From NCBI GenBank assembly GCA_965219345.1, contig OZ244732.1:928001-992000 (forward strand): DNA of 64,000 nt. Reading direction: 5' to 3'. This DNA is from Nitrosopumilus sp. (lineage in GTDB: Archaea > Thermoproteota > Nitrososphaeria > Nitrososphaerales > Nitrosopumilaceae). The notes beneath the pieces were generated by a model. That model saw only the letters and a list, made by a program, of their open reading frames with translations, searched no databases and had not been told where the DNA came from. Position 1 is the stretch's first letter; each line of letters starts with the position of its first letter. Positions 23,222 to 46,286 of the stretch are shown in pieces. Made by a program: the position numbers and the translations under genes.

Positions 23222-23264
23222 CCTATAACCACTTTTTTAAGCAAGTTTTTCCCTGAAACCTCCT

Positions 23265-23658: not shown

Positions 23659-23747
23659 CGGTGAGTGTGGGAATTGAACCCACGATGTCCTTCTCAGAGA
23701 CAATCGCCTCATCAAGGCGACATCTTACCATACTAGATAAACTCACC
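23659..23747 (-). tRNA. Atypical tRNA: anticodon GAT (Ile), long variable arm, G73
   Basis: GGTGAGT/ACTCACC acceptor, ATCT/AGAT D-stem, TCGCC-TTGATGA-GGCGA, 20-nt variable region, GTGGG-TTCAATT-CCCAC; TATAAATA about 25 bp upstream. Confidence 0.85.
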
Positions 23748-23839
23748 ATGTGTTATTATTAACACTAGGGTTATTTATAGATTTAGTTAACAATATGGTT
23801 AACAATAAATTTATAATGACATGGATATTATTTCATACT

Positions 23840-24019
23840 ATGACAAGATGGAAGAAAGATAAAACAGAGTTTAGCGTTTCAATAAACACACTTTCAAATA
23901 GAAATGGTTCAACATCTCAAGTTTGTACAATTCCAAAACCAATAATAGAATTTTTGGGAGAACCTGAAAATCTAAAGTTTGTTATTCGTGGTAAGGGAAT
24001 TGTTGTAACATCAAACTAA
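23840..24019 (+). CDS. AbrB/MazE-like small DNA-binding protein
   Basis: TIPKPI..LG....LKF swapped-hairpin pattern; GTTAACAAT direct repeats upstream. Confidence 0.65.
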   Translation: MTRWKKDKTEFSVSINTLSNRNGSTSQVCTIPKPIIEFLGEPENLKFVIRGKGIVVTSN

Positions 24020-24050
24020 CAAGATTGAATAAAAACAAAGAAAAAGAATA

Positions 24051-24240
24051 TTATGTAAACTGTTGAGATTCTTTTTTCATATAGTTTGAAACGAGTTTTT
24101 TACCATTTTCATTTATGAAATATTTTTTACAAAACCCATTTTCTGCTTTGACTTTCTCAGATCTTAAAAGACCTACTTTTTCCAGTTTACTCAATCGGGA
24201 AATTACTGCTCCTTTATCTGCGTTTAGTTTGGTTATCGGT
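24051..24240 (-). pseudogene. 5'-truncated winged-helix regulator
   Basis: KLNADKGAVISRLSKLEKVGLL...KKYFINENGKK is a wHTH C-terminal half. Confidence 0.6.
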
Positions 24241-25059: not shown

Positions 25060-25163
25060 TTTTTTACTTAATTTTATTTTTCAAAAACTACCAAAATATT
25101 GAAAATCGTTCATGTAAACTGTTTATTTTAAATGGTTAAATTCTAGAGCAGAAAACTTACTTC

Positions 25164-25649
25164 ATGGATTTTGAACTAATCGAAAAAATTCTTAAAAATG
25201 CATTAAAGAAATTGAAAGAATTTGATTTCAAATTATTAGAAGTTAATGTAAATGAAAGAACGATTTCTCATAAACTGGCAGAATATCTTCAGCAAAACAT
25301 TCACGATTTATCTGTTGATTGTGAATACAATAGACGTCAGGGATCAATAAAGAAATCAAATATTCCATGTGATGATACTGACAGAGAGGATTCAGATGCT
25401 AAGGCCATTCTTCCAGATATTGTTATTCATAAGAGAAATACTAATGATGAGAATCTTCTAATCATAGAAATAAAAAAATCCACCAATAACCAAAGCCATG
25501 ATTCTGATATATCTAAAATTAAGGCATTAACTAATGAACCATATAATTACAAATTTGGTTTATTTTTAGAAATTAATGTTGCTGAAGGAAGTGATTCTTT
25601 AAAGTGGTTCAAGGAAGGCAAATTATTCAAACAAGTAGACTTGAATTAA
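25164..25649 (+). CDS. PD-(D/E)XK nuclease family protein
   Basis: NERTISHKLA, VDCEYNR, PDIVIH, IIEIKK. Confidence 0.7.
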   Translation: MDFELIEKILKNALKKLKEFDFKLLEVNVNERTISHKLAEYLQQNIHDLSVDCEYNRRQGSIKKSNIPCDDTDREDSDAKAILPDIVIHKRNTNDENLLIIEIKKSTNNQSHDSDISKIKALTNEPYNYKFGLFLEINVAEGSDSLKWFKEGKLFKQVDLN

Positions 25650-25707
25650 GTATTTGAATAGATATTATGCAGAAGAAATTCTAAGAATTACTTTTAAAGG
25701 ACTTTGA

Positions 25708-26131
25708 TTGAAGGAAACTACGTTTTTTTACCAAAAAATTCCTATTACTCCAAAAAAGAAATCTGGATTATTATCCAAAGATGTTTTGAATCAAAAAATT
25801 AAACCTCAGCCAAATCTTAAGGATGCAAAAAAATTGCTAGATATGAAAATCAAAAAATCAAATGTTGTGTTTTTAATCGATGAAAATATTCTAGGAATTG
25901 ATCGATATCTCTCATCTTTTGAAATAAAATACAGAAAAGTAGGTGATATTAACTGCCCTCCCAGAGGTTCAGATGATCCTACTGTGGCAAAATTCGCTCA
26001 GAAACATAATCTTGTGGTTGTGACAAATGATGAAACTCCAAAAACAATGTGAACCATTAGATGTCCCTTGTATTGTTCCAACTCTTAGTGATTTGGCAAA
26101 AAAAGTAAGAGCATATTCAAATTCACGCTAA
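25708..26131 (+). pseudogene. PIN-like (Mut7-C/DUF5615-type) protein, frameshifted near 26030
   Basis: FLIDEN...GSDD...VVVTND; continues as KLQKQCEPLDVPCI in another frame. Confidence 0.55.
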
Positions 26132-26309
26132 TCACCTTTCAAAACCCCATTTGAAAATGTCTAAATATGGTTGAATAAGTTCAAAATTGAACAATAATTG
26201 CTTAATTTTTTACATATTACATCCTACAAATCTACAAAAACTGACAACTTGTACATGCAAGTAAGTAAGAAAAAATGAGGAACAAAAATTAAACTACAAG
26301 TGAATAATT

Positions 26310-26540
26310 ATGTCTTATGAAATCTCAACATTAATGAATAACACTAAAAACAAAGTTGTTACACTTAGACTGCGAAACAACAAAACTATTCAAGGCATAC
26401 TCAAAGAATTTGATATTCATATGAATTTGACCTTGGAAGATGCAGAAGATGTATCTGTTGAAAAAACTGAAAAAATTGGAACTGTTTTGGTACGTGGCGA
26501 TAATATTTTAGCAGTATCAATGCCTAAAGAAGAATCTTAG
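26310..26540 (+). CDS. Sm-like (LSm) RNA-binding protein
   Basis: G.LKEFDIHMNLTLED...VRGDNI. Confidence 0.93.
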   Translation: MSYEISTLMNNTKNKVVTLRLRNNKTIQGILKEFDIHMNLTLEDAEDVSVEKTEKIGTVLVRGDNILAVSMPKEES

Positions 26541-26571
26541 AAATTCATTCATCAAACATTAAATTCAATCT

Positions 26572-27768
26572 TTGACAAATTTTATCATGTATCTGCTTTT
26601 TGTATTTTTTCCATTGATTCTTTTTCCTGCATTTGGAGAATCAATACCTGATTATAATGATCCATATGCTCCAATTTTTACTGATAAGACTACATACACT
26701 TGGACTGACAAAATAAAAATTACAATAATAGCACCAAGTTGGAATACTGGCAAATACCTAATTGACTCAATTGGAGGTAGTGAAGATCATCCAATTAAAA
26801 TTTCTACAAGGGAAAATTCTCTAGAACCATATCGATTTACTGAAACAGACGTCAATTCAGGAATTTTCACAGCTGAGGTTATTCTTACAGGCTTTTCACA
26901 TGATGCTGATGGCGATGGAGATGTTGATACAACGCCTAGAACCATTGGTAATGGACCCACTAATGGATTTTTGGAAGTTGACAGGAATTCATCCATTACA
27001 ATCTCATTTGAATTTGCAGATGGTGTGGTATTAACTGAGTCTGTTCCTGTAAGTTGGAATCTTGGAACAATTCAATTTTCCAAAGAGACTTTTTTTTCAG
27101 ATGATTCTGTAATAATACGTGTCATTGATCTTGATATGAATCTAAATCCTGAAGCGCTTGATCATATTCCTATACAACTTTTTTCAGACTCTGATATTGC
27201 AGGAATTGAGGTTAATGCTATAGAGACATCTAAAAGTTCTGGTTTATTTATTGCCACAGTCTCTTTGTCTCAAACTTTGCCTTCTAGTGGAAATAGACTT
27301 TATTCTTCACTTGGAGATGAAATTTTTGCTAAATATGATGACCATACATTGCCAAAACCATATTCTACGTTAGATAATTTAGAAATTATAACTACTGCTA
27401 GAACTGATTCACCAATTCCTCCAATTGAAAGACTAGATAATTCTCGAATTGTTTTGTCTGATAGTCTTGGCAATCAATTAGAGTCATTTTTACCAAATAA
27501 TCAAATACAGATAGTTGGAACTATAATAAATGATCATAACTTTAAGCAGAAATTTGTTTATCTATTTCAAGTAAAAAATATCACTGATTCTGTAGAATCA
27601 ATTTCATGGATTCAAGGTGAACTATCTCCTAAACAAAGTCTAGATGTTTCTCAATCTTGGATCCCTAAAAAATCTGGAATATATCAAATTGAAACATTTG
27701 TTTGGAGTTCTCTAAATGATCCAATAGCATTAGCTCCAGAAATGTCAACTTCGATCGTAGTTGAATGA
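26572..27768 (+). CDS. Secreted S-layer-like protein
   Basis: Signal peptide; ETDVNSGIF and D.DMNLNP motifs; C-terminal SW.P..SG.Y..E.FVW Ig-like domain. Confidence 0.7.
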   Translation: MTNFIMYLLFVFFPLILFPAFGESIPDYNDPYAPIFTDKTTYTWTDKIKITIIAPSWNTGKYLIDSIGGSEDHPIKISTRENSLEPYRFTETDVNSGIFTAEVILTGFSHDADGDGDVDTTPRTIGNGPTNGFLEVDRNSSITISFEFADGVVLTESVPVSWNLGTIQFSKETFFSDDSVIIRVIDLDMNLNPEALDHIPIQLFSDSDIAGIEVNAIETSKSSGLFIATVSLSQTLPSSGNRLYSSLGDEIFAKYDDHTLPKPYSTLDNLEIITTARTDSPIPPIERLDNSRIVLSDSLGNQLESFLPNNQIQIVGTIINDHNFKQKFVYLFQVKNITDSVESISWIQGELSPKQSLDVSQSWIPKKSGIYQIETFVWSSLNDPIALAPEMSTSIVVE

Positions 27769-31171: not shown

Positions 31172-31260
31172 TAGCCCGAGGAAGATTCGAACTCCCGTCT
31201 CCGCCTATCCACTCTTTGAGATCCAGAGGGCAGAATCCTTGACCGCTAGACTATCGGGCT
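31172..31260 (-). tRNA. tRNA-Gln(CTG) with a 16-nt intron at 37/38 (about 31207-31222)
   Basis: AGCCCGA/TCGGGCT acceptor, CT-CTG-G anticodon loop, GGGAG-TTCGAAT-CTTCC T arm. Confidence 0.9.
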
Positions 31261-33892: not shown

Positions 33893-33959
33893 GGTATTTT
33901 GCGATTAATCACACCTAATAAAAATACATTTAGTGAGTAAACCAAAAGTTTAGTTACCT

Positions 33960-34694
33960 ATGAGGAAAAATGACAAAATGTTGATTAATAGATTTAATAA
34001 AATTTTCATTATTACTGCGATGTCATTATTTGTCGTATCTTCATTAGCTTCTGAAGCTTTAGGTTATGGTGGCCCTCCAGAACAAAGCAGTACTAACAAT
34101 TTCACTGTAGCGATATACTCTGATAAAGAATCATACAATCTTGGAGAAACAGTAACATTTTCTGGAAGTGTTAACAAGTATGATGAGGACAGAAATTTAC
34201 GGATCTCAATCTTTGATTCTAGTAACAAGTTTATTGCAACTCAGAAAACTCCAGTCAACGTTGATGGCACATTCTCTCACAGTGTAATACTAAATGAGAA
34301 ATTTTCTGATGGAAACTACATAGTTAAAGCTCAGTATGGAAGTTCAAAGACAACAGTAGAAAAAATGTCATTTGTGATAAATTCCAATGGTGCATCTATG
34401 GAAGAACAATTATCTGCTGGTCAAGTCCCTGATTGGATTAAATTTACTGCAGGTGTTTGGGTCGATGGAAACTCTTCAGATGGTGAATTTATTAGCGCAA
34501 TTAAGTTCCTTATTGAAGATAAAATTATTGTAATTCCACCAACTACACAAGGTTCAAACGGAGAATCTAATCAAGTTCCATCATGGATTAAATTCACTAC
34601 GGGTGTTTGGGTCGATGGAACATCTTCAGATGGTGAATTTATTAGCGCAATTCAATTCTTGATCAAAGAAGGAATTATGAAAATATCAAATTAA
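33960..34694 (+). CDS. Secreted thaumarchaeal protein with two VP.WIK...W...DGEF repeats
   Basis: Signal peptide, Ig-like domain, duplicated C-terminal domain. Confidence 0.8.
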   Translation: MRKNDKMLINRFNKIFIITAMSLFVVSSLASEALGYGGPPEQSSTNNFTVAIYSDKESYNLGETVTFSGSVNKYDEDRNLRISIFDSSNKFIATQKTPVNVDGTFSHSVILNEKFSDGNYIVKAQYGSSKTTVEKMSFVINSNGASMEEQLSAGQVPDWIKFTAGVWVDGNSSDGEFISAIKFLIEDKIIVIPPTTQGSNGESNQVPSWIKFTTGVWVDGTSSDGEFISAIQFLIKEGIMKISN

Positions 34695-34838
34695 CTTAAA
34701 ATTTTAATTTAATTACAAACATATCTGGAAAAAAGAATTTGAGCCTGATTATTTGCGCTCAGAATCATATTTCTTGTGACATTTAGAAGAATAAAACAAA
34801 TGGTTCTAATAGTGACTAAAAAGACCTAGGAATCTGAT

Positions 34839-34988
34839 ATGAAATATCTATGCAGAACCTGTAAAACGAAATGTGATGATATTCCAATACATATGATTGA
34901 GGTACACAAATTTTCAAAATCAATTGTGGACTCACAACTCAAATCAAACCCAAATTCTTTTAAAAATGCCTTTGAAAAATTAGCATAA
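34839..34988 (+). CDS. 49-aa C2H2-type zinc-finger microprotein
   Basis: Hand translation MKYLCRTCKTKCDDIPIHMIEVHKF... Confidence 0.55.
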   Translation: MKYLCRTCKTKCDDIPIHMIEVHKFSKSIVDSQLKSNPNSFKNAFEKLA

Positions 34989-35001
34989 TTATAGACCTAC
35001 A

Positions 35002-36075
35002 ATGCAAGCAAAACTTATGAAAAACAATCTGAAATCTTTAGAGATCTCCTCAGCAGAGTGGTATTCTCTAAATCAGTTTCTATATCAGATAAAACAGATT
35101 GACTCTCCATGTGTGTCGGTATACTATCCATATGGTAAGGGGAAAGAGACCATCTCTTTACTCCAAGAGACAAACAGGAAAGAGTCATTTGAAAGAATTG
35201 AATCAGCAATTGAGAAAAGAATCATACATCTTAGGAAGAATCCTTCGTCAGTAGGCAAGTTTGCAAAGACTCTATGTATTTTTGGATGGATAAAGAATGG
35301 CAAAGTACACACCAAAGAAATTGGAACCTCCAAGAGACTTCCCTACATCTACATGGCAAGCAAAAAACCATACATCAAACCATTCCGTGATATTCTCAAA
35401 ACCAATCATGATGTTTTACTAGTAACTCTTGATCAAAAATCTGCAAGAATACAGAAATTTCACGGGAGTCAGATAATTCAAGAAGCTAAACTTGGAATTG
35501 ATCTCCGAAGTAGACATAGAAAAGGAGGACAGAGTCAGGGAAGATTTCTAAGGGCAAGACAAACAAAGATTCATGTCTTCTTTAAGAAAGTTGCAACCAA
35601 AGTCAGAAACATGGATTCTAATTCTGAGTTGATACTGTTAGGTGGAATAGGTCCTGCAAAGACAGAATTTTACGGAGAACTAGACTCGGAACTGGTAAAA
35701 AAATGTCGATTTGTACAAGACTTGTCTTTCTCTACTCCTATTCATGATATTCACAAGAAGATAATTCATCACTTGTACCAGTATAGAAGACGATATGTCG
35801 CACAAATAATTGAAAAATACGAGAAACTATTCAAAGATGGACTAACTGCGAAAAGAAATGATGTTATCTACAAGGCATTAGAGATTGGAGCCGTAGATAC
35901 GCTTATTGTTTCTGTAGACTATCACACCAACTCCCAATTCAAAAGTATAATGAAGATGCTAGAGATTGCTAGAAATAATTCCACTAGAATAGAGTTTGCA
36001 GTATCTCCAAAAATTATTGAAAAACTAGATCTTCATAATTCTGTTCTAGCTATACTTCGATACAGAATAAAATAA
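35002..36075 (+). CDS. aRF1/eRF1-superfamily paralog
   Basis: HRKGGQSQGRF, LGG.G..K.EF, GAVDTL. Confidence 0.8.
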   Translation: MQAKLMKNNLKSLEISSAEWYSLNQFLYQIKQIDSPCVSVYYPYGKGKETISLLQETNRKESFERIESAIEKRIIHLRKNPSSVGKFAKTLCIFGWIKNGKVHTKEIGTSKRLPYIYMASKKPYIKPFRDILKTNHDVLLVTLDQKSARIQKFHGSQIIQEAKLGIDLRSRHRKGGQSQGRFLRARQTKIHVFFKKVATKVRNMDSNSELILLGGIGPAKTEFYGELDSELVKKCRFVQDLSFSTPIHDIHKKIIHHLYQYRRRYVAQIIEKYEKLFKDGLTAKRNDVIYKALEIGAVDTLIVSVDYHTNSQFKSIMKMLEIARNNSTRIEFAVSPKIIEKLDLHNSVLAILRYRIK

Positions 36076-36107
36076 TCATTTTTAACCATTGAATTATATA
36101 TTTTTCC

Positions 36108-36359
36108 ATGGATTTCATGTTGGAAGAAGAATTGATAGACTTGATGACATTTTGCCTGCAAAATCCAGATTCTGCAGAAATTAATGATAAACATTCAAGA
36201 ATCACTGAGATTGGTCATGAACTTTATGCTGATGGTGGAGTTGATGCTTTGGAGAACTTTGCTTTTGTTTTAAAAAATCGAATTACACAAGAAATAGATA
36301 AAGATCCATCCTCGATGCGTTCGCTATGGAATGGTCTAACTGATGAATGGAAATACTAG
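36108..36359 (+). CDS. Hypothetical protein
   Basis: Clean 83-aa ORF with TATA upstream. Confidence 0.65.
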   Translation: MDFMLEEELIDLMTFCLQNPDSAEINDKHSRITEIGHELYADGGVDALENFAFVLKNRITQEIDKDPSSMRSLWNGLTDEWKY

Positions 36360-36361
36360 TT

Positions 36362-36715
36362 TCATAAATCGAATGTAACGTCCAAGAATTCTCCAATTTC
36401 CTTGAATGTGAAATTATGTGAATCATTGAGTGTTTTGATAATTAGTGATATCTCTGCATTATAATCCCAAGAAAAATCATCTCCCATAAGATATGGGTAC
36501 ACTTTTTCTTCCCTTATTCCGTATGATTGCAATATTTCATAATGACTTGCAAACAATTTTTCTCTACTCAAATGAACAGCTGGATCATCACTCTCACACG
36601 CTAATACACCAAGCGCAGACTTGCCAACTACTTCATCTGTGTTGTCTTTGAATTTAATTAAATGGTTAGTAATTTGTGGAATGGTTGTCTCCTTTAGTAT
36701 CTGGCTAATCTTCAT
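36362..36715 (-). CDS. Hypothetical protein
   Basis: Clean 117-aa ORF. Confidence 0.65.
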   Translation of the reverse strand: MKISQILKETTIPQITNHLIKFKDNTDEVVGKSALGVLACESDDPAVHLSREKLFASHYEILQSYGIREEKVYPYLMGDDFSWDYNAEISLIIKTLNDSHNFTFKEIGEFLDVTFDL

Positions 36716-37088
36716 TATTTTGCGATTCGTTTAATGTCTAATAAAAATAATGTCAGTTAATCTTTAAATTCATCAATTCTAAGAGTATTTTTTCATGATC
36801 AACTTCTAGTTCTGTACTAAGCAAGACAAAAGACCCGTCTCTTAACTCTCTAGTTATTCGTTTTACCTTTTCATATATTGTAACTGAATATATTGATCTG
36901 CCTATTGATGAGAAAAGGAGTTCTTTTCACTTTGTAATAGGCGCTGCCTTAATACTACCTAAACTTCAATCAAACCCACAAATTAGGAACAAATTAATTC
37001 TATACTATTTATTGCCCATATTTCTTGGATTAGTGATTCTATTTGGTTGATTCACCAATTTTTAATATTGGGAAGTGCTACCAAAAAC

Positions 37089-37253
37089 ATGGCTGACACA
37101 TCTAAAAAAAAACAGGATGTGTTAGAAGAAAAACGTGTTCTAGATCTGTATAATTGTAAAGATATTCCACTACAATACGAAATTAAACCTAGAGGTACTA
37201 TCGAATTCGTCGAATCTGATGAAATAAAAAAAGAAGATTTTTTAGATGATTAG
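37089..37253 (+). CDS. Small hypothetical protein
   Basis: ATG at 37089 after a TTTTTAATA box. Confidence 0.4.
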   Translation: MADTSKKKQDVLEEKRVLDLYNCKDIPLQYEIKPRGTIEFVESDEIKKEDFLDD

Positions 37254-37300
37254 TAAATATTTATTAAAATTGACAATTATTATAAATTTACAAGCAGTAA

Positions 37301-37573
37301 TCAAAAAAATTTGGTAAAACCGCCAGTTATTATGATGGTGAGATTTGCAAATTTGATTTGAACATTCTTAGCTGTGTCATTTCCTATATTAAACAAGTTA
37401 AAATTAATTGTTGCATCATTGTCATCATGATAAATAATTCCCGTATCTTTAGTTAAAATGATCTTTTCTAATGAAGATACTAATTTTGGTCCTCCTTCTG
37501 CAGCATATATGGGATTTGACAAGGTGATTGATACTAGTAATAATAAGATTATTGATACGACCATTCTTTTCAA
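37301..37573 (-). CDS. Short secreted protein, probably truncated
   Basis: Signal peptide; N.G...A.NV Ig-like strand, then an abrupt end. Confidence 0.45.
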   Translation of the reverse strand: MKRMVVSIILLLLVSITLSNPIYAAEGGPKLVSSLEKIILTKDTGIIYHDDNDATINFNLFNIGNDTAKNVQIKFANLTIIITGGFTKFF

Positions 37574-37583
37574 TTTTTTTCAC

Positions 37584-38648
37584 TTATTTTGGTATATTAA
37601 ATAATGACCATATCACACGATGATCAGATATTGCCCATTTTGTATATGCTCTAAATTGTGATTTTCTTTTAGTATTGTATAATTTCTGAAAACATACAGT
37701 ATCAAAAGCAAAAATTTGTGCTTTGTGTTCCTTTGTTACTTTAATTTTCTTAGAAAATGGTTCTGAGACAACAAGTTGATCATAATATGCATTATTATTG
37801 ATGTTAGAACCCTTTTTGATTTGTTTGTCTTTGAGTTTGTTTGAATCATCATTAATTGTAGAATCTGATTTAATTACACTTCCTTTTCCAATATGCTCAT
37901 GGTAGCGTAGTGGAGCTAGATGTTTTCTCTTTAGTCTTTTGTATACTGCATCTGTTTTTTCCATTCTTGGTACATTAAAATCTCCTAAAAGTAAAATATT
38001 ATGAGAAAATAATTCATTCTTATCTTTTTTTAATAATTTTTCAATCCAACTTGTAAGTGAATATATTTCTAATACTCTTTGTTGAAATTGACGTGTCTTT
38101 TCACTCTTTTTTCCATAATAGATATGTGAATTATATGTAGTAAAAGTTGTTGAATTAAATTTCCAAGATGCCAAGTATGACGGTCTATCATACCCTCTGA
38201 ATTTTACTGATTTTCCATTAAACTTTAATGATTTTCTTTGAGATGGTGGAATTGTTAATTCTCCAATATGATTTAACAATTCTAATCGTTTGGGTTTGTA
38301 GATGTATGTCATCCGTTCCTTGTTTCCTCCCGTATCGCTGAATAAGCATACATGAGTTCTTTTTAATATATTCATGATTTTGTTCAAACCAGTCATATTA
38401 GCATTAACTTCTTGTATGGCGATTAGATCAAATGGTTTTATGATTTCTGCAATCAAATTATAACAAGAATTTGTTCTTTCTTGGACATCAAAATTTGCTA
38501 TATTCCAACTTCCTATCAACAATTGATTTTTCTTTGGTTTTGAAATTCCTTCAGGGATTGCCTTGCGTTGTAATTTACGAATGGCTTTGATCTCTACTTT
38601 TTTATTAAAATTATATGTAAATGTTTTAGGTCTACAAAAAGGAGGCAC
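37584..38648 (-). CDS. Endonuclease/exonuclease/phosphatase (EEP, DNase I-like) protein
   Basis: SWNI, AIQEV, GDFN, YDQ, SDH. Confidence 0.9.
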   Translation of the reverse strand: MPPFCRPKTFTYNFNKKVEIKAIRKLQRKAIPEGISKPKKNQLLIGSWNIANFDVQERTNSCYNLIAEIIKPFDLIAIQEVNANMTGLNKIMNILKRTHVCLFSDTGGNKERMTYIYKPKRLELLNHIGELTIPPSQRKSLKFNGKSVKFRGYDRPSYLASWKFNSTTFTTYNSHIYYGKKSEKTRQFQQRVLEIYSLTSWIEKLLKKDKNELFSHNILLLGDFNVPRMEKTDAVYKRLKRKHLAPLRYHEHIGKGSVIKSDSTINDDSNKLKDKQIKKGSNINNNAYYDQLVVSEPFSKKIKVTKEHKAQIFAFDTVCFQKLYNTKRKSQFRAYTKWAISDHRVIWSLFNIPK

Positions 38649-38842
38649 ATTATAGTTAATTTTGTACTAGTACTAAACTCTTCAGGTATTACTTACTTGA
38701 AGTATTATTTCATGAAATTACTTTATCGTTTATTAAAACAGAAGATTCACTCTTTGAATTTATTTGATCGATGTTAATCCATTTTGGTGGAAATGGATGG
38801 ATTGAATAAAGTTCTTTTAATTGTTTAACATCCTGTAAGAAC

Positions 38843-39252
38843 CATGCTTGGAAAAAACAATACAAAGCCAAGAATTTACTGCACAAGGAAACAGAACACC
38901 ATAGACACATTCACCTTTCAGGGGATATGAACAACAACCAGATGGAATCCTTTAACGGAAACACACTAAGAATGAGAGAGAAAATTGTTAGGGGAATAAA
39001 GAAAGACGATTCTGCAATACTCAAGTTTTTCAGGATCTATGTAGATTGGATTCCAGTCCTAGGGGAATAAAGAAAGACGATTCTGCAATACTCAAGGGTA
39101 TGCAGCTTCACCACAACTACATTAGACCACACTAAGGATTGGATGGTGATACACCCACTGACGGGGCAGGAATCAGGGTTATGGGTGATAATAAATGGAA
39201 GACGATAATTCAGAATGCGGTAAAATCTGATCTACCGAGCTGTCCCAAGTAG
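38843..39252 (+). pseudogene. C-terminal remnant of an archaeal IS6-like DDE transposase
   Basis: NNNQMESFNG...REKIVRGIKK...HNYIRPH*GL.G.TP...AGI; internal stop and a 71-bp insertion. Confidence 0.7.
38989..39096. repeat. 37-bp perfect direct repeat flanking a 34-bp unique insert
   Basis: TAGGGGAATAAAGAAAGACGATTCTGCAATACTCAAG at 38989-39025 and 39060-39096. Confidence 0.95.
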
Positions 39253-39474
39253 AATTATCTACCACTGATGTACCAGTTCAGGTTTTTGTGATATAACTGG
39301 GTTTTGAACATAATAGTTACTAAGATATAATTTGAGAGACTATAAAAGATGATTTAATGTGAATGTGTTGTTCATACTCCTGAAAATCTACCTAAATATT
39401 TTTTCAGATCCTATCTTATGTCTTCATAAAACATCAAATAAGATAAATCATATTTAGTATCGGTTTTATTTTGT

Positions 39475-40263
39475 TTATGAATCCAGTAATTCGGATTTTT
39501 TCTTTTCAAAGTCTGTTTCGGTGATAACATCCATTATCATCATATCATACCATTCCCTGATTTGGATTCGTTTATCTTCATCACTCATCTGGGTTGATTT
39601 TAGATTGTCTGCAGTCTGTTTGATTTTTTTAGTAGCATCCATACTTTTCATTTTGATTTTTTCAGTAGAGATTTTCTCACTTGTTTTTTTACCAATATCT
39701 ATCACACTTGAAGCAGTTTTGTTAGAATATTGTTTTAATTTATCAGTAATGTTTCGTTGTGGTAGTATGGCTTTTTTCCATTCTCTTTTTGATTTGTAAC
39801 CACAGGCCTTTAGATTGTATTGTGTCGTCCACTTGAACATAAAATAAACTACAATAAAGATAGAGCCAAGAAAGATAACTGTATGATACAAAACAATTAA
39901 CGAAAATGAAATTAAAAATATAAAATCATCCAAATTTCCACTGTGAGGAAAGTAATCATAAATCAACTCACTAAGAAAAATCTCTAGATGATAGTGGGGT
40001 TCAATGTAAAGTGAATACCCAATACTTTCAGTTATGGTCATATCTTGATCAATTTCAAGAGGATATAAAATATAATCAAGAATAAACCAGACAGTTAGAA
40101 AAACTACAAATAATGGTATCCATTTTCTTGTCTTATGCATTTTGCTTGTCCAAAGTAGTGCAAATATTGAACATGAGAAAAAACAAGCCCAAAACCTAGA
40201 TAGTGGTTGTTGTGGTTTGGCTTGATCTTCTGTGATTTTTGGATCAGCCATATATTTGAGCAA
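39475..40263 (-). CDS. Membrane protein with a C-terminal SHOCT-like domain
   Basis: Several TM segments; ITETDFEKKKSELL. Confidence 0.7.
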   Translation of the reverse strand: MLKYMADPKITEDQAKPQQPLSRFWACFFSCSIFALLWTSKMHKTRKWIPLFVVFLTVWFILDYILYPLEIDQDMTITESIGYSLYIEPHYHLEIFLSELIYDYFPHSGNLDDFIFLISFSLIVLYHTVIFLGSIFIVVYFMFKWTTQYNLKACGYKSKREWKKAILPQRNITDKLKQYSNKTASSVIDIGKKTSEKISTEKIKMKSMDATKKIKQTADNLKSTQMSDEDKRIQIREWYDMMIMDVITETDFEKKKSELLDS

Positions 40264-40413
40264 AAATTAGAGAATAAAAACAATACTACACTTAAATTAT
40301 TTTTATTCCTGTTAAAAAATAGGAAAATTGAGGGTTAATTGTATCTATGACAACCCTAATACGACTTGCGATCTAATATCTAATCGATTTTTGATCGTCA
40401 TGTTTTTAATTAA

Positions 40414-41482
40414 TAGAGATTATGCGTAATCGATCATAATATCCGCACAATACGTGGTTTTACGATACACACGCACGTCAGCGGCAGAACGGCTTGCAGC
40501 CAGATAATCCGCACAACACATGAACAAAAACGCCAGAATCCAAAATGCAATGCGCAGCCCTGCAGCACCGCCACGTGCTCCGAAATCACATCGTCAATCC
40601 GGTGGCACTTGCTGCCACCCGCGGCGCTAACCAAGAAATCTTCTGCGTAGCTTGGGACTTCCCCTGTGAAGCGTCTTCATCAGGTGCAGGTTTACCAGGC
40701 CCGCAACGACATTCATCTCGCAGTTGAGCTCGTCCTCGGTGCCGCCGTACGGCTCTGTCATCCTGGCATACTGCTTTATCCTGCCTATGCTGTTCTCCAC
40801 TGTCACCTTGATGCCGCCTACCTTCTTGTTGCGCTTCTTTTGCTCATCTGTCAGATTTCGGGCCTCCCCCTCCTTTCCCTTTCTTCTTCTTGGTCTTTTG
40901 TACGGCATGATTACGTTTGCGCCCAGAAGATCCTTTTGCATTCCCTGATACCCAAGATCCATGTATGCGGTAAACCTCTCGCTTTTTGGATTGGACCCGT
41001 CGTGCATTTTTTCAGCCCACCTGCCAAACGGAATCGGATCTTCCCTGAGCAGTGTTATGTCATGGGTCTTTCCAACGACGGTGCTGCCGATTCCCAGGAT
41101 GATGTTGTTTGTAGCGGACACTGGTTGTGTTGAACGTATGCCTCTTTTTCTTGCCTGAATACATCTCCTTTCTTCTGTCCTTCTTGCCGGAACGGCGCAC
41201 GGGTATGTGGGTGCCGTCGACCAGCAGCGTTCCTGCGCCCCTGCATTCACTGGGATGTTGATGCCATGTCTGGTCTTCCACAGGCCGCGCTCAAGATCCA
41301 GCTCCTCGTTTTTCTGCTCCAGCTCCTTGCCTTTCTGCCCCAGGGTCTTCTTTAGTTTTTTGATCTCCTGTTGCAGCCTGCGTATGGTTTGATCAGATGA
41401 ATCTGGCATTTGATGTGTGGCATGATCGTGTCTGATCTAAACTTATCGGCGTGGGGTTTGGAGGGATTACGCATAATCTCTA
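40414..41482 (-). mobile_element. GC-rich IS5-family (DDE_Tnp_4-type) element
   Basis: Perfect inverted repeats TAGAGATTATGCGTAATC / GATTACGCATAATCTCTA; composition shift. Confidence 0.85.
40627..41409 (-). pseudogene. IS5-family transposase, frameshifted
   Basis: LVDGT...YSGKKKRH in one frame; HD...DLGYQG...VENSIGRIK in another. Confidence 0.8.
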
Positions 41483-41549
41483 TTATTGGAGAATATATAA
41501 AATCACATAATAAGAGAGTAGAATCCAAAGAAATAAGTCCGAATTCTGT

Positions 41550-41611
41550 ATCAAATTATAACAAGAATTTGTTCTTTCTTGGACATCAAAATTTGCTATA
41601 TTCCAACTTCC
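41550..41611. repeat. 62-bp exact copy of 38452-38513 (internal to the EEP gene)
   Basis: ATCAAATTATAACAAG...CCAACTTCC identical at both sites, same orientation. Confidence 0.92.
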
Positions 41612-41887
41612 CAGATATTATGTAATTTCTGATTTAGAATCAGGTGATGCTGCTGATATATCACTACAGGTATCTGCTGCTCTAATTGATGACTTGTATA
41701 GAGGACCAGCAACACAAACAATTACATCAATTGTTGAATGTAATAGTTAATCTTTTTTTCTTTTTATTAATTTAAATTAAACATGAAACAATATTTTAGA
41801 TTGTATTGTTTTATTTAATATCAGAAATACTACTCTATCAAAATAAAAAACTAATAACTTTATAATTTGGATAAAATAATAAAACCT

Positions 41888-41976
41888 GTTGGCGTCGCCA
41901 AGCATGGTATGGCGTGAGTCTGATAAACTCAAATCTGATACCTTCGGATTCGCCGGTTCAAATCCGGCCGCCAACG
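41888..41976 (+). tRNA. Atypical tRNA: anticodon GAT (Ile), long variable arm, G73
   Basis: GTTGGCG/CGCCAAC acceptor, GCCA/TGGC D-stem, TGAGT-CTGATAA-ACTCA, AATCTGA/TCGGATT variable stem, GCCGG-TTCAAAT-CCGGC; TTTATAA at 41859. Confidence 0.88.
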
Positions 41977-42030
41977 GGTTTATGCTAAATGTAATATTCA
42001 CTATTATAAAAGATCATAGTATCAATTAAT

Positions 42031-43221
42031 TGTGGGATCCTGAAAGTAGTATACCCCCTATCTGACATCGTATTCCTCTCCCGTTTGTTCGTCAATAACT
42101 GTTTGTCCTGGGGATGGCATCTTTCTGGTGAATGCCCGCGCCGGTGTCTCTAGGTTGTCCAGATCAAGTGACATGTGTGGCCGGTCGTGGTTGAACCATT
42201 CCACAAACCGCTCCACGGGATCCGTCTTTGGTTTCGTGTTGAACGGTCCGCCCACACGGTCCGTCTCGGATCCTGCTGAACGCACCGTTCTGTAGGCCGA
42301 CTCCTCCTCGAAGAGGTGCAGTTTGCGCTGGAGTTCACCGTGAACCCTCTCGAGCTTGCCGTTTGTCTGCGGGTGTCTTACACGCGCCAGGATCTGCCTG
42401 ATGCCCAGCGACACCAGCTCCAGCTCAAATTCGGAGGCGCCTTTCTTCTTGTACTGCCCCTCGTTGGCGTAGAACTGGCTGCCGCGGTCAGTCAGAATGG
42501 ACGCGGGTTTGCCGTGCGCCTCCATTGCTGCCCTGAGAACCTCGATTGCGTGCCTGGAGGTGGCCTGATCAAAGACGCCGTATCCGACAATAAACCTGGA
42601 GGCGTCATCCAGATAGGCGATAAACCACCTTCCGTCATCCAGCTGCTTGTAGTCTGTGTGCCACATCGAGTTGGAGTAGGTGCGCTCAAAGCGGATCCAT
42701 TTGCGCCTCTTGCTCTTCTTGGGCTGCCTTGCCGACAGGTTGTTGTCCCTCATTATGCCGTGTACGGCATTGTGAGGGATATGTATTCCCTCTTCCTCCT
42801 CGATCAGTCGCTCCGTGCGGACGGCCCCCTGGCGGTGCCTGCAGTGTGCAGAGAGGACCGCAGTGTTCCCTGCGACCCGGAAGACCATTCTCGGGCCTGC
42901 CCATGCTAGCCGGGTAGACTATCCTGTCAGGTTCCACACCCTTGTACCTGGCCCACAGTTTCTTTACCCAGATCTCGGAGATGCCCATGGTATCTGCAAT
43001 CTGCCTGTTGGTCGTTTTGCCGGCCTTCTTCTGCAGGATTATCCACTTTACCTTTGACTCGTCAAGTTTTCTCATGACCCTGATGCGGCGCCTTCCGATA
43101 TGTCTCCACCTCTGTGTGCGCTTTAGGAACCCACGTACCATCATCTCAATTCTGCGTCTTGCTTCAGTCAGTATGCGTCCCTCCTATTTTGAGGGGGGTA
43201 TACTACTTTCTGGACTATACA
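42031..43221 (-). mobile_element. GC-rich IS481-family element with a 15-bp target duplication
   Basis: TGT...ACA ends; imperfect IR containing GAAAGTAGTATACCCCC; ATAGTATCAATTAAT at 42016-42030 and 43222-43236. Confidence 0.92.
42058..43076 (-). pseudogene. IS481 transposase, frameshifted near 42870
   Basis: HTH N-terminus (MRKLDESK...) in one frame; WHTD, DDASR, TDRGSQF, PQTNGKLER in another. Confidence 0.85.
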
Positions 43222-43248
43222 ATAGTATCAATTAATGATTTAACCATA

Positions 43249-43532
43249 ATGAATATATTAATTCGTAAAGCAACACAAAAAGACATACAGACTATATTGG
43301 AACTATTATACGAGTTAGGATGTCCAATGCAAAACTCATTAATGTGAATCTCACTGATGCAAATCTCCATAATGCAAATCTTACTAATACAGATCTAACC
43401 AATACAAAATTCCATAAGCAAACCTCTCTTATGCAGACCTTAGTGGTGCAAACCTCTATAGATCAAACCTCTCTTATGCAAACCTCATGGGTGCAAAACT
43501 CACTGGTGCAGGCCTTAAGGATACAGCATTAA
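43249..43532 (+). pseudogene. GNAT N-terminal fragment joined to a pentapeptide-repeat remnant
   Basis: MNILIRKATQKDIQTILELLYELG, then ANL/ADL pentapeptides across frameshifts. Confidence 0.55.
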
Positions 43533-43634
43533 ATAAGAAATTTTACTAATTCGACAAAACTTCATTGGTCATTTAAATTACAAAGAAAATTTCAAAATAG
43601 TTTCTTTAAATAACAAAATCGATGTCCATTATTA

Positions 43635-44291
43635 TTGGGTCTAAGAGAAATTGAACTTCAAGAAGAATATCGTTCAGATAGAAATGATATTGCATCGGAA
43701 TTTTTCTTTCCTTGCCTAAGTAATTGTATCGAGTATGATAGATGTGTTGACTTTTTGTCGATTCAGACGTTAGCCACAATCTCTATGGCATTTGATAATT
43801 TTGTTGCGGGTAAAGCAAAATTAAGAATTGTTACAGGCCACAGATTTAGAGCAGCAGATCTTGATCTATTTACAAAACTCTTTGATGCGAAATACACGAA
43901 ATCGTTTGAAGGAAAACAAATCAAAAACACCAAAATTGAAAAAATTGCAAGATTTTTTGACAATGGCCAAATTGAATTAAAGATTGCAATCCCAAACTCA
44001 GAAGAAGTTGCAGATTCATTCTCAGAGAGAATTGGGATATTTAGAGATGAGCATGATCAGATTGTTGCATTTACTGGTACCTCTAGTGAATCATTCTCTA
44101 CTCAGACAATAGATTTTGAATCCGTAGATGTGTTTACGTCATGGAATGACAAATCACGGGTTGAAAGAAAGATGAAAGATTTTGAGGATCTGTGGGAGAA
44201 CAAGACGAAATATGTGCAAGTTTATGATTTTATGTATGCAATAAAAAACAATCTTTTAAGATATTCATCTGAATGGGTATTACAAGATTAA
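43635..44291 (+). CDS. Stand-alone PLD-like domain related to N-termini of SF2/restriction helicases
   Basis: YRSD.ND....FF.PCL, IELKIA, GIFRD....VAFTG...FE..DVF.SW...FEDLW. Confidence 0.65.
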   Translation: MGLREIELQEEYRSDRNDIASEFFFPCLSNCIEYDRCVDFLSIQTLATISMAFDNFVAGKAKLRIVTGHRFRAADLDLFTKLFDAKYTKSFEGKQIKNTKIEKIARFFDNGQIELKIAIPNSEEVADSFSERIGIFRDEHDQIVAFTGTSSESFSTQTIDFESVDVFTSWNDKSRVERKMKDFEDLWENKTKYVQVYDFMYAIKNNLLRYSSEWVLQD

Positions 44292-44851
44292 AGCTGAAAT
44301 GACTCTTCTAATCTAGCTTTGTTTTCATAGAAATTCATTCTATTGATTTTATAGTAGATAACTTCACCACGACGTTCAATGACTGCAATAATTGGTTCTT
44401 TTCCCATCTGAGTGATCTCTTCAATCTTTTTCTGTAGATTGCCCATCTTTTCTTGTTGGCCCTCATTAAGGCCGAAGATTAGAAATTTTGCACCCTTTTC
44501 GCCAAAGTGTCCTCTTTCATAAACTCTAAAGTCCGAACCAAACCCAAAACCGTCCTTTACAACATAACCGCGATTTCGAAGATCTCGGTATATCAAAAAT
44601 TTGGTTAGAATTTCAGGATTTATTTTTTGACAAAGACTCATGAAAGAGTTAAAATCAATCTGTTTTTTTCCTTTCTTTAGGGTTAGTCTTTTAGCGTATA
44701 ACAGGTAAAGAGTTTCAAATTGTTTTAGGAGTAATTTTCCTTTTTCAATTTCCCCATATCCCTTTTGCTCAAGTTCATGAATCATATTCTTATCAGAGAT
44801 GTAAGTCTGACTTGAAATCATCTCACCCTTGACCAAAGGAGTTTCTTCCAT
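44288..44851 (-). CDS. endA: tRNA splicing endonuclease catalytic subunit
   Basis: YRDLRNRGYVVK.GFGFGSDFRVY. Confidence 0.9.
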   Translation of the reverse strand: MEETPLVKGEMISSQTYISDKNMIHELEQKGYGEIEKGKLLLKQFETLYLLYAKRLTLKKGKKQIDFNSFMSLCQKINPEILTKFLIYRDLRNRGYVVKDGFGFGSDFRVYERGHFGEKGAKFLIFGLNEGQQEKMGNLQKKIEEITQMGKEPIIAVIERRGEVIYYKINRMNFYENKARLEESFQL

Positions 44852-44950
44852 GATGAAGAGAAAGCCAAAGGATTTCCATATAAGCATTGGATAACATGAA
44901 TAAATGCTGGGTTAACCGTTAAAATATGGGCATTCTTGTTTTAGGATGTC

Positions 44951-45460
44951 ATGCATGGTGCAAATTATAGAAGAGGAGTTGGGCAAGCTTTTACTAGAAA
45001 GGAGTACATCAAAGGTAAACCACAGATAAAAATTGCAAAATTTCAAGGTGGTAAAAGAGGAACATACCAATATCGTGTTCAATTAAGTCTAAACGAAAAG
45101 ATTCAGATCAGACATATGGCAATCGAGTCAACCAGATTAGCAGCAAACAAGACATTGGAGAAAACAACTGGAGAAACAGGTTATTATTCCAGACTAAGAA
45201 TTTATCCACATATTCTTCTAAGAGAAAACAAACAGATTGCAACTGCAGGTGCAGACAGAATTTCAGAAGGAATGAGAAGATCATGGGGTAAAGCCACAAG
45301 TTTAGGTGCTAGAGTCAAACAAGGTCAATGTATAATGGAGTTATACGTAAATGGTAATGATCATTTAGAGGCAGCAAAGAAAGCTCTCAAAGGCGCATGT
45401 GTAAAATTACCTGGCACACCAACAATCTCAATGCTTGAATGGAACAAACCATCACCATAA
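44951..45460 (+). CDS. rpl10e: Ribosomal protein L10e/L16
   Basis: LRENK...AGADRISEGMR. Confidence 0.96.
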   Translation: MHGANYRRGVGQAFTRKEYIKGKPQIKIAKFQGGKRGTYQYRVQLSLNEKIQIRHMAIESTRLAANKTLEKTTGETGYYSRLRIYPHILLRENKQIATAGADRISEGMRRSWGKATSLGARVKQGQCIMELYVNGNDHLEAAKKALKGACVKLPGTPTISMLEWNKPSP

Positions 45461-45715
45461 ATTTTCTAAATTAGATTTCTTGGTTTTGATAAATTCTAAA
45501 AACTCTTCAAATTCTTCTTTAGTTGGCTCTCGATTAAGAATTCTTTTGGATTGATAGTAAAAGGAGTTGTAAATTCTACCCACTACAATACCTAAAGCAA
45601 ATGATTTTGAACCGTCAATGTTTGATAGAAATTGAATTAATTGTTTGATTTCATCCTTATTCGAAACTGTATCTTGAATTTTTTCCTCCATCTTCTTTAG
45701 AAGAATTTTATCCAT
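45452..45715 (-). CDS. Hypothetical protein
   Basis: Clean 87-aa ORF. Confidence 0.7.
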   Translation of the reverse strand: MDKILLKKMEEKIQDTVSNKDEIKQLIQFLSNIDGSKSFALGIVVGRIYNSFYYQSKRILNREPTKEEFEEFLEFIKTKKSNLENLW

Positions 45716-45778
45716 ATTGTATCTTAATTGAAATAGTTAAAAACAGTTTAATATCCAAATTTAGCCTCTAGGATTGTT

Positions 45779-45855
45779 GCAGTTATAGTACAGTTTGGTT
45801 AATATTCTAGCTTGCCAAGTTAGTGACCCGGGTTCAAATCCCGGTAACTGCACCA
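45779..45855 (+). tRNA. tRNA-Gly(GCC), encoded CCA
   Basis: GCAGTTA/TAACTGC, CTAGC-TTGCCAA-GTTAG, CCGGG-TTCAAAT-CCCGG, ACCA end. Confidence 0.93.
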
Positions 45856-46286
45856 TCTATCTTTGATTTCTTTGCTAGCCCATTATGAATAATTTCCAGT
45901 GCATCATGAGCTTTTTCTGGACGAGGCAATTGAATCATAAACACATTGTCCTTTCCGTAATGAGAATGTGGAGAAGAGAGAGCAAGCATGGATGTTTTTG
46001 CAAGAGATTCAAAAAATGAAAGATCAGATTTTGCGTTAACTAGAAATTTTTCAACAATATTTCCTCTTGAAAATGTTAAAACAACTTCAACAAAAACATT
46101 TCCTTGCCCATCGTGGAGAATTTTTAGATCAGTATTAATCGATAAAGGTTGTCCAGCAACTTTTGAGAGCATATCATCGTATTTTTCTTCTTCAATTACA
46201 ATACATGGGGTGTTCTTACCATCAAAATCAAAAGTGGTAATTCCATCATGGACTTGGTCTAACAGTCTCTTTAATTCATCAGACAT
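45834..46286 (-). CDS. Hypothetical protein (3' end overlaps tRNA-Gly)
   Basis: 150-aa ORF coupled to the antiporter gene. Confidence 0.7.
   Translation of the reverse strand: MSDELKRLLDQVHDGITTFDFDGKNTPCIVIEEEKYDDMLSKVAGQPLSINTDLKILHDGQGNVFVEVVLTFSRGNIVEKFLVNAKSDLSFFESLAKTSMLALSSPHSHYGKDNVFMIQLPRPEKAHDALEIIHNGLAKKSKIDGAVTGI

Follow-up and report, generated by a model that had tools for sequence, protein, structure and literature searches.

The stretch of DNA considered here (hereafter the window) comprises 64,000 nucleotides of a Nitrosopumilus sp. genome (contig OZ244732.1, positions 928,001 to 992,000) and contains, at window positions 41888-41976 on the plus strand, an 89-nt class II tRNA gene with the anticodon GAT, G at the discriminator position 73 and no encoded CCA. 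In a preliminary description of the window, made from the letters alone, this gene was taken for a tRNA with a serine-type body and an isoleucine anticodon and for the second copy of a structurally conserved pair. We keep the designation copy 2 for this gene and copy 1 for its partner at 23659-23747 on the minus strand, a class II tRNA gene that likewise combines the anticodon GAT with G73 (acceptor strand GGTGAGT) and, as discussed below, belongs to another subfamily.

The full layout of copy 2 is GTTGGCG-TC-GCCA-AGCATGGTA-TGGC-G-TGAGT-CTGATAA-ACTCA-AATCTGATACCTTCGGATTC-GCCGG-TTCAAAT-CCGGC-CGCCAAC-G. The 7-bp acceptor stem (GTTGGCG/CGCCAAC) and the 5-bp T stem (T arm GCCGG-TTCAAAT-CCGGC) make up the canonical 7/5 fold; between them lie the D arm (GCCA/TGGC, with the loop AGCATGGTA), the anticodon arm (TGAGT-CTGATAA-ACTCA, anticodon GAT) and a variable region of 20 nt (AATCTGA-TACCT-TCGGATT-C) that forms a 7-bp stem, one G.U pair included, with a 5-nt loop. 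All conserved tertiary and loop nucleotides are in place (U8, A14, G18, G19, U33, T54-T55-C56 and A58). The Rfam model RF00005 gives 56.1 bits to copy 2 and 54.5 bits to copy 1 (gathering score 29), both genes are labelled tRNA-Ile(gat) by ARAGORN, and the thermodynamic fold yields z = -5.04 for copy 2 (0/200 shuffles as good) and z = -4.30 for copy 1 (1/200), all of which agrees with the coordinates, the cloverleaf and the 7/5 fold of the preliminary description. The centroid structure of copy 2 is the five-arm cloverleaf, unlike the minimum free energy structure, in which the 5' strand of the anticodon stem pairs with the 3' strand of the variable arm because the 5' strand of that arm (AUCUGAUA) repeats the sequence of the anticodon stem and loop (GUCUGAUA); this mispairing is probably a matter of chance given that homologues lack the same repeat.

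Upstream of the gene, the TATA-like box TTTATAA that had been noted initially is present at 41859-41865 (+), 22 nt from the mature 5' end, whereas the T-run claimed downstream comes down to TTT. A TATA-like hexamer is found at -38 to -22 in 21 of the 48 members of the family to which copy 2 belongs (see below), compared to 13 of 43 canonical tRNAs (counted from -40 to -20) and 2.9% of 2000 random positions. Judging from its sequence, copy 2, with its promoter-like box, appears to be a functional tRNA gene.

A serine-type body with an isoleucine anticodon loop

Since raw pairwise identity failed to separate Ser from Leu tRNAs, isotype was assessed with two covariance models, one built from 28 distinct tRNA-Ser of the genus, with the variable-arm pairs included, and the other from 12 tRNA-Leu. 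Both are self-built, the sequences behind them being few and alike (effective numbers 1.23 and 1.01), and no Ile-specific model stands beside them. Copy 2 scores 75.9 bits with the Ser model and 56.6 bits with the Leu model, the latter value lying below the range of real tRNA-Leu (78.8-114.7 bits); the corresponding values for copy 1 are 64.2 and 46.4 bits, and the Ser model prevails for 48/48 family members. For comparison, the held-out tRNA-Ser score 86.1 vs 52.2 bits (GGA) and 84.9 vs 44.7 bits (CGA), the held-out tRNA-Leu (CAA) 48.6 vs 78.8 bits, and the host tRNA-Ile 44.5 vs 43.3 bits.

Several individual marks point in the same direction. Copy 2 possesses the Ser identity elements G73, G1:C72 and G30:C40 (a weaker determinant in M. 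barkeri; copy 1 has C30:G40 instead), and its variable arm shows the geometry of the host tRNA-Ser, with no unpaired bases on the 5' side and one on the 3' side. The D-arm type is shared with host tRNA-Ser as well, and the D-arm motif also occurs in ordinary tRNA-Ser (CGA, GCT, TGA) from Thermoplasmata and Hydrothermarchaeales records. According to the sections on these amino acids in a published account of tRNA identity (PMC9976931), Ser identity lies in the variable arm and G73, with no involvement of the anticodon, and G73 is an antideterminant for archaeal LeuRS; in the same account, Ile identity depends strongly on the discriminator as well as the anticodon, and Phe identity on A73 and the anticodon as conserved determinants, the archaeon A. 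pernix included. The differences from host tRNA-Ser are the non-Ser anticodon (GAU, as opposed to GCU, UGA, CGA or GGA), the lower G+C content, the 20-nt rather than 14-15-nt arm and the strain-specific location, and an archaeal tRNA-Leu would be expected to carry A73 rather than G73, to have a D loop and variable arm of the Leu type and to score higher with the Leu model.

The comparison with the canonical host tRNA-Ile(GAU) (C1:871289-871363; 75 nt, Rfam 65.9 bits) is twofold. Copy 2 has G73 and the 20-nt arm where tRNA-Ile has A73 and a 5-nt loop, and yet its anticodon loop CUGAUAA, including A37 and A38, is identical letter for letter. Thus, copy 2 carries two conflicting sets of marks, because the Ser marks of the body are combined with the anticodon loop of the host tRNA-Ile. 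As far as can be told at the sequence level, the body is Ser-like rather than Ile-like, as the preliminary description had it. A single seryl-tRNA synthetase (SerRS) is encoded in the genome, a common-type enzyme whose N-terminal arm domain is Seryl_tRNA_N, and no second SerRS was found there.

A mismatched tRNA family in Nitrosopumilus

Copy 2 is not an isolated oddity. Among the 52 tRNA genes that ARAGORN, with introns allowed, detects in the 1.91-Mb host genome, which has all four tRNA-Ser (GGA, with an intron, UGA, GCU and CGA) and a normal A73 tRNA-Leu(CAG), there are nine long-armed G73 tRNAs with non-Ser anticodons, namely the two copies in the window and seven others with the anticodons UCU, UAU (2), CAG (2) and CCU (2). 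A covariance model (R1) built from seven host Ser-bodied mismatch tRNAs and three tRNA-Ser yields, at E <= 1e-15, about four matches (the four tRNA-Ser) in most of the 151 genomes of the genus and 10 in the host; by our own count of the table, at least 6 matches are present in 10/151 genomes and at least 5 in 30/151. From the genomes with raised R1 counts that were opened, a chosen and incomplete sample from which some of the listed matches were left unfetched, we collected 48 family members in 17 genomes whose record titles read Nitrosopumilus; further public contig records with members are one from Nitrosotalea (GAA) and one from Nitrosopumilaceae (TTC). A covariance search, a kind of check that had been suggested at the outset, thus recovers homologues across genus genomes, and the idea of an accessory tRNA family holds, although its extent does not: the host alone has nine members, not two.

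The anticodons of the 48 members are GAA (22), GAT (8), TAT (5), CAG (5), TAA (3), CCT (2), ACG, CTT and TCT (1 each), and several members are one A35 change away from a Ser anticodon (GGA to GAA, UGA to UAA, GCU to GAU). The subfamily of copy 2 is recognized by the D arm GCCAAG..GGTATGGC and includes 17 fetched members, of which 16 have GAA, copy 2 being the only one with GAT. The Ile anticodon is real in copies 1 and 2 but is not a fixed property of their relatives. In particular, the closest relative of copy 2 (G150, L086) has GAA; it shares the last 17 nt upstream, with homology extending only to approximately -17, and 49 of 53 nt downstream (4 mismatches), a 3' trailer (41977-42029, +) that ends at the boundary of the next insertion sequence (IS), with a loose end at 42030. 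The two genes differ by compensated changes at the acceptor pair 6:67, the anticodon-stem pair 29:41 and the T-stem pairs 50:64 and 51:63, and the variable arm of L086 is 6 nt shorter.

Copy 1 has a near-identical homologue in G150 (L090) and others that are close in G145 (L053), and its subfamily comprises anticodons GAT, GAA and TAT. A comparison of copies 1 and 2 over the 21 base pairs of the acceptor, D, anticodon and T stems reveals 13 two-sided changes, no one-sided changes and 8 unchanged pairs, all of them paired. The compensatory stem changes asserted in the preliminary description are therefore confirmed, and both genes are real; as a conserved pair they are less convincing, being only 61% identical, placed in different subfamilies and part of a larger family.

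Two genes at the margins of the family deserve mention. The tRNA(cct) at C1:1235417-1235498 (L006/L072) falls below the Rfam gathering score, scores 67.9 with R1 and was kept. A tRNA-Val(cac) of ~92-94 nt at C1:1280475-1280566 (-) (L074), which has A73, an unpaired insert of ~20 nt in the variable region and metabolic neighbours, was left out and is probably a tRNA-Val with a non-canonical intron. Genomic CCA is uninformative as a distinguishing mark, being present in 0/9 family genes and 5/37 canonical ones. The G+C content of the family is 52%, compared to 58% for canonical tRNAs.

Selection and decay

The pattern of conservation across the family is that of tRNA genes under structural constraint. 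All 48 members retain G1, U8, A14, G18, G26, A38, T54, T55, A58 and G73; U33, C72 and the G1:C72 pair are each kept in 47/48, C56 in 46/48 and A35 in 43/48. G19 is likewise kept in 46-48 members. In an alignment of 50 rows (A3; the 48 members and 2 other tRNAs) fitted to R1, G30:C40 is present in 40 rows, copy 2 among them, 97.6% of 1049 cells form standard pairs, and two-sided changes affect 18 of the 21 pairs (322 cells), values that are reached in 0/500 shuffles, whereas only 35-51% of the cells pair when the 3' partner is slid by 1-3 columns; these numbers are generous because the alignment is model-fitted, which favours pairing, and the sequences are related, but the effect is still large. 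The stems are free to change; what is held are the discriminator, the tertiary nucleotides and the middle base of the anticodon.

This constraint coexists with decay. The arrays of G155, G145 and G124 contain copies that have lost the 5' strand, a stem or an intact T-loop. In one of these, a tandem array of G155 (L118:1207-2039), four tRNA units of ~293 bp with conserved flanks include a single intact one (GAA), the other three showing a T-loop deletion, a deletion in the anticodon stem and loss of the 5' acceptor strand, respectively; the last of these has the anticodon arm of copy 2, TGAGT-CTGATAA.

Insertion sequences and defence islands

The family rides on insertion sequences and on defence and restriction-modification islands, a setting not noticed in the preliminary description. 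Copy 2 itself resides in a single-copy piece of 554 bp (41476-42029, with contig loose ends at 41475 and 42030) that has a multicopy IS element on either side, one at 40410-41475 (-; limits approximate; loose ends at 40410-40444 and 41475), with a DDE_Tnp_4 open reading frame (ORF) at 40627-41409 (PF13359, E = 5.5e-6), and the other at 42030-43090 (-; right limit approximate; loose end at 42030), with an rve integrase-core transposase ORF at 42058-42888 (PF00665, E = 9.3e-14). The depth of the contig piece 41582-42030 is chromosome-like (156.5 in X1 and 70.7 in X2) against ~1100-2000 (X1) and 500-540 (X2) for the contig pieces that flank copy 2. No counterpart of window 33928-43569, the region around copy 2, was found at the matching places of G007, the closest relative examined (~89% identity).

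Copy 1 occupies a different kind of site, a strain-specific insertion of ~3.06 kb (23206-26262) that contains the tRNA gene and three ORFs and is located at the 3' terminus of the gene for RNA polymerase A. In G007, the end of rpoA (window 23205) abuts directly on a match to window 26249-26575, and in the window imperfect direct repeats (23183-23205 and 26240-26262) with a shared terminal TACATGCAAGT stand on either side of the insertion. One ORF (25164-25649, +) resembles the PD-Lambda-3_A anti-phage defence protein (PADLOC PDLC03986, E = 1.1e-28), and another (25708-26052) has a weak match to DUF5615 (PIN-like; E = 2.6e-4), below the Pfam cut-off. The insertion replaces the final codons of RNA polymerase A and resembles a small integrated cassette; no integrase was found inside it.

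The other host members adjoin genes for IS240-type and rve transposases, N6/N4 and EcoRI-type methylases, GmrSD-HNH, Eco57I-like, AIPR and Fic proteins. When transposase, restriction-modification and defence proteins from the family loci were used as tblastn markers, with queries from a gene's own locus excluded, a marker was found within 5 kb of 8/9 family genes and 8/43 canonical tRNAs (Fisher p = 1.3e-4), a contrast that is biased upward since the markers were drawn from the surroundings of the family itself, and to be read with the fact that 4 of the 8 marker-positive canonical tRNAs are mere neighbours of family genes. In G124, eight members lie on one strand over 34 kb together with HaeIII, MmeI, Eco57I-like and BglII-like restriction genes and six methylases. 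The order of anticodons there (L051/L052, C2:186001-226000) is CAG, GAT, GAA, GAA, GAT, GAA, GAA, GAA. The 3' halves of these eight tRNAs (T arm and 3' acceptor strand) are nearly the same and the 5' halves differ, a pattern that would fit repeated recombination within the tRNA.

A connection to transposases is apparent at two host loci, in G000 C1 near 1.220 and 1.730 Mb (L070:3834-5087, -; L071:5001-6257, +), where a G73 long-arm tRNA(CAG) is followed by a conserved 49-nt trailer with a TATA-like box and then by an IS240-type transposase gene; the two tRNAs are 85/86 identical, and the whole homologous unit is 77.8% identical over 1275 nt. The possibility that the tRNA is cargo inside an IS bounded by terminal inverted repeats was considered and dropped, given that no such repeats were found around any of three tRNA-transposase units. 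An all-against-all BLASTP comparison of the 394 ORFs located no more than 2.5 kb from 49 family genes showed that only two kinds of partner recur, namely transposases at 7 loci and proteins of an HNH-containing group at 5. Palindromes of differing sequence cover the TATA region of some members, with arms of 21 nt (L071:4942-4993), 12 nt (L070:5093-5116) and 11 nt (L090, upstream of 1589). As a general promoter feature, operator-like palindromes were rejected: the mean longest arm is 8.1 nt in the family, 7.4 nt in canonical tRNAs and 6.9 nt in random stretches, and arms of at least 10 nt are found in 7/48, 3/43 and 17/400, respectively. A weak search of IMG/VR for viral relatives, with four narrow exact patterns of the D arm and anticodon arm, returned 5' tRNA fragments from G+C-rich organisms, short-armed tRNAs or nothing.

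A possible function and its alternatives

So what could such tRNAs do? The scenario that, in our view, best accommodates these observations, and to which as a whole chain we would assign a probability of about 0.5, is one in which the genes of a tRNA family of Nitrosopumilus and its relatives multiply, degenerate and travel together with insertion sequences and small cassettes for defence or restriction-modification, the anticodons being confined to NAN (GAA, GAU, UAU, CAG, UAA) and thus suited to reading Phe, Ile and Leu codons. Copy 2 would be serylated by the single SerRS of the host, and this is its most likely fate since the sole SerRS is expected to read the variable arm and not the anticodon. 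Serylated copy 2 would then deliver Ser at AUC and AUU codons in competition with the ordinary tRNA-Ile, such misreading being kept low or conditional, and might be put to use in genetic conflict, with mobile and defence islands carrying it as a toxic or addictive load, much as has been proposed for the bacterial allo-tRNAs encoded near toxin-antitoxin genes. On this view, copy 2 would be the archaeal equivalent of allo-tRNAs and nev-tRNAs. Transcription, serylation, ribosomal decoding and a benefit of copy 2 are what we infer from the sequence features, the family and its setting.

Several points weigh against this scenario. One is the identity of the anticodon loop with that of the host tRNA-Ile: IleRS and PheRS depend heavily on the anticodon, so that the tRNA may be loaded with Ile, or with Ser and Ile both. 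Among the sequencing runs, 23 are listed as matching part of window 36000-45999 and none of these is recorded as RNA; the four that were examined are contigs, two of which span the copy 2 stretch at even, DNA-like depth. Steady insertion of Ser would be costly because this genome, at 36% G+C, uses AUY and UUY codons very often, and part of the family is evidently dying, given that decayed copies adjoin intact ones. The narrow basis of the Ser and Leu models, the fitting of A3 to R1 and the origin of the association markers, all described above, have to be counted here as well.

Could copy 2 instead be charged according to its anticodon? It would then be an accessory tRNA for Ile (and for Phe in the GAA members) with which mobile elements boost the decoding of A+T-rich codons, the Ser body being a historical accident. 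Apart from the shared CUGAUAA loop, such a role would agree with the match between the family anticodons and the abundant A+T-rich codons UUY, AUY, AUA, UUA and AGA, and would entail no cost from misread common codons; moreover, the anticodon is strong for IleRS and PheRS, and in the examples given in PMC9976931, yeast tRNA-Tyr provided with GAA is charged by PheRS. We nevertheless regard this alternative as unlikely. G73 is present in 48/48 members, although A73 is a Phe determinant and the discriminator is strong for Ile, and the body is independent of the anticodon, near-identical bodies and flanks carrying GAA, GAT or TAT. The CAG and TAA members would be unchargeable by archaeal LeuRS, for which G73 is an antideterminant (PMC9976931), and with the exception of a single CTT, the Lys, Asn, Glu(UUC) and Tyr anticodons that would serve the remaining abundant A+T-rich codons are missing among the 48. 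A comparably doubtful alternative is a role outside translation, whereby the RNA or its gene would draw off tRNA-targeting toxins or nucleases in a defence island (as a decoy or sponge), supply the neighbouring transposase with a module for processing or promotion, or offer IS elements a landing site. The two host units in which tRNA(CAG) and its 49-nt trailer run into a transposase gene, with the tRNA so much better conserved than the unit, are compatible with such a role, as are the 3' trailers that are kept within subfamilies and resemble promoters of the next gene, the IS elements located ~50 nt or less from the 3' end at several loci, and the long promoter palindromes of L071, L070 and L090. 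A site or decoy, though, would not need U33, A38, T54-T55-C56, G18-G19 or a constrained A35; terminal inverted repeats around tRNA and transposase were not found, promoter palindromes are not general (7/48 members), no partner family besides transposases and HNH/methylase genes recurs, and copy 1 sits 453 nt inside its insertion, away from the edge.

The remaining two alternatives appear much less plausible. That copy 2 is a functionless, neutral, recently duplicated and slowly decaying tRNA-Ser with a mutated anticodon is improbable: the 13 compensated pairs between the window copies, with none broken, the 97.6% pairing and 322 two-sided changes in A3, the retention of tertiary nucleotides, G73, A35 and TATA-like boxes, and a tRNA(CAG) that is 85/86 identical within a 77.8%-identical unit all speak for selection, in spite of the patchy, strain-specific distribution (approximately four or fewer Ser-type matches in 121/151 genus genomes), the lack of both window loci in G007, the broken copies within the same arrays and the lower G+C content (52% vs 58%). 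The least credible reading, to which we give hardly any weight, is the one that the preliminary description had named as its refutation, namely that the extra arm is a non-canonical intron whose splicing leaves a short-armed tRNA-Ile. Non-canonical introns are described as frequent in the thaumarchaeal tRNA genes considered in PMC8450103, other tRNAs of the host genome have introns, and a splicing endonuclease gene is encoded 2.3 kb away (44288-44887); but the 7-bp helix of the arm, closed by a 5-nt loop, runs through without 3-nt bulges, and because this unbroken hairpin offers no bulge-helix-bulge motif (judged by inspection), it is not an intron. Furthermore, the arm agrees with the variable-arm pairs of the Ser model and recurs in GAA, TAT, CAG and TAA members, and its removal would leave G73 and a Ser-type D arm in a molecule that, before removal, is only 60% identical to the host tRNA-Ile.

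Returning to the idea of Ser-charged tRNAs, a bolder and distinctly speculative extension, which we hold to be rather unlikely, is that ammonia-oxidising archaea possess a mobile arsenal of 'poison' tRNAs, in which A35 is selected such that a polar residue replaces Phe, Ile or Leu. These tRNAs would be switched on from their own, sometimes palindrome-guarded, promoters upon virus attack or after loss of the element and would do the killing in abortive-infection or addiction modules on IS elements and defence islands. Should that be the case, an arms race would lie behind the rapid, compensated turnover of the stems and the exchange of anticodons, and the family would represent deliberate, weaponised mistranslation in Archaea.

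Relationship to known mismatched tRNAs

Mismatches between tRNA body and anticodon are natural tests of how the genetic code is policed, and as a kind they are already known from nematodes, some other eukaryotes, CUG-clade yeasts and bacteria. Among the closest parallels are the bacterial allo-tRNAs, which combine Ser marks with varied non-Ser anticodons and are found beside toxin-antitoxin or transposon genes (Mukai et al. 2017, PMC5389517; PMC7609411). In the portions of the first of these studies that bear on the comparison (PMC5389517), some allo-tRNAs insert Ser in E. coli, and the similarities to the present family include a long variable arm together with G73 on many non-Ser anticodons, with UAU common in both, as well as the patchy distribution, the proximity of allo-tRNAs to toxin-antitoxin genes or transposon-related ORFs, and the occurrence of pseudogenes and irregular arrays. 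The differences are equally clear: allo-tRNAs are bacterial, have 8/4 or 9/3 acceptor/T-stem folds and anticodons for 35 of the 64 codons (PMC5389517), whereas the present family is archaeal, has the 7/5 fold, keeps A35 in 43/48 members and is surrounded mostly by restriction-modification genes and IS elements.

The nev-tRNAs and other eukaryotic non-canonical V-arm tRNAs also place an anticodon for a class I amino acid, Ile(UAU) included, on a class II body, and show lineage-specific expansion; as related in a 2014 review (PMC4033280), the nev-tRNAs are charged in vitro by the body rather than the anticodon, as is predicted for the family, and expressed at a low level. Unlike the Ser-type, G73, archaeal family, the nev-tRNAs are Leu-type and Leu-charged, carry Gly or Ile anticodons and belong to nematodes; they mostly read rare codons, whereas GAA and GAU read very common ones, and they are not known to be linked to mobile or defence DNA. 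A table in the same review lists no such mismatched V-arm tRNAs for Archaea or Bacteria (PMC4033280), and in the sections of a study on thaumarchaeal integrated elements that concern tRNA genes, these are mentioned only as integration targets (PMC6563490). In our full-text searches of articles, no archaeal report of mismatched Ser-bodied tRNAs was found.

The tRNA-Ser(CAG) of CUG-clade yeasts is another case in which a Ser body reads a Leu codon, and the host of copy 2 has an A73 tRNA-Leu(CAG) along with two G73 long-arm tRNAs(CAG). In these yeasts, the reassignment or ambiguity is fixed, chromosome-wide and limited to one rare codon, unlike the many anticodons and the strain-specific, mobile distribution seen here, and nothing in the material examined points to codon reassignment. 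Competing Ser and Leu tRNAs(CAG) reportedly occur in Ascoidea, and the nematode nev-tRNAs are said to have been characterized by Hamashima et al. What is new in the present family is therefore the combination of an archaeal origin, the canonical 7/5 fold, anticodons restricted to A35 and the tie to IS elements and restriction-modification or defence islands.

The value of the family lies in the dozens of natural canonical-fold variants, under selection for structure and A35, that coexist with one ordinary SerRS in a repeatable genomic setting. It makes testable whether an archaeal SerRS ignores the anticodon, whether cells put up with, or exploit, Ser in place of Phe, Ile and Leu, and whether mismatched tRNAs are a tool of mobile elements and defence in both prokaryotic domains. 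On a practical note, anticodon-based callers (here, ARAGORN) label members of the family as tRNA-Ile, Phe, Leu or Arg, which inflates and distorts tRNA sets.

Other features of the window and the genome

The window also contains an ordinary tRNA gene, a tRNA-Gln(CUG) at 31172-31260 (-) with a 16-nt intron in the anticodon loop (Rfam 45.7 bits), which ARAGORN misses without the intron mode. Elsewhere in the genome, ARAGORN reports two four-base anticodons, tcgt and tccg (C1:787949-788026 and 1438222-1438294), which may be miscalls of short or non-canonical-intron genes, and does not call the Trp, Glu(UUC), Leu(UAA) and Pro(CGG) tRNAs; R1 gives three more tRNA-like matches (869754-869875, 638711-638802 and 72288-72362).

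Two protein-coding genes near copy 2 are worth recording. An eRF1-like paralogue (35002-36075, +), with Pfam matches to eRF1_2 and baeRF_family10 and a sub-threshold match to NCBIfam aRF-1, is encoded 6 kb from copy 2, within 33928-43569, a proximity that may or may not be due to chance. On the other side, a 218-aa ORF (43635-44291, +) corresponds to no more than the first third of the PADLOC profiles for the defence protein PbeA (626-722 positions; E = 4e-45); it is a fragment or a stand-alone domain and directly precedes the tRNA-splicing endonuclease gene.

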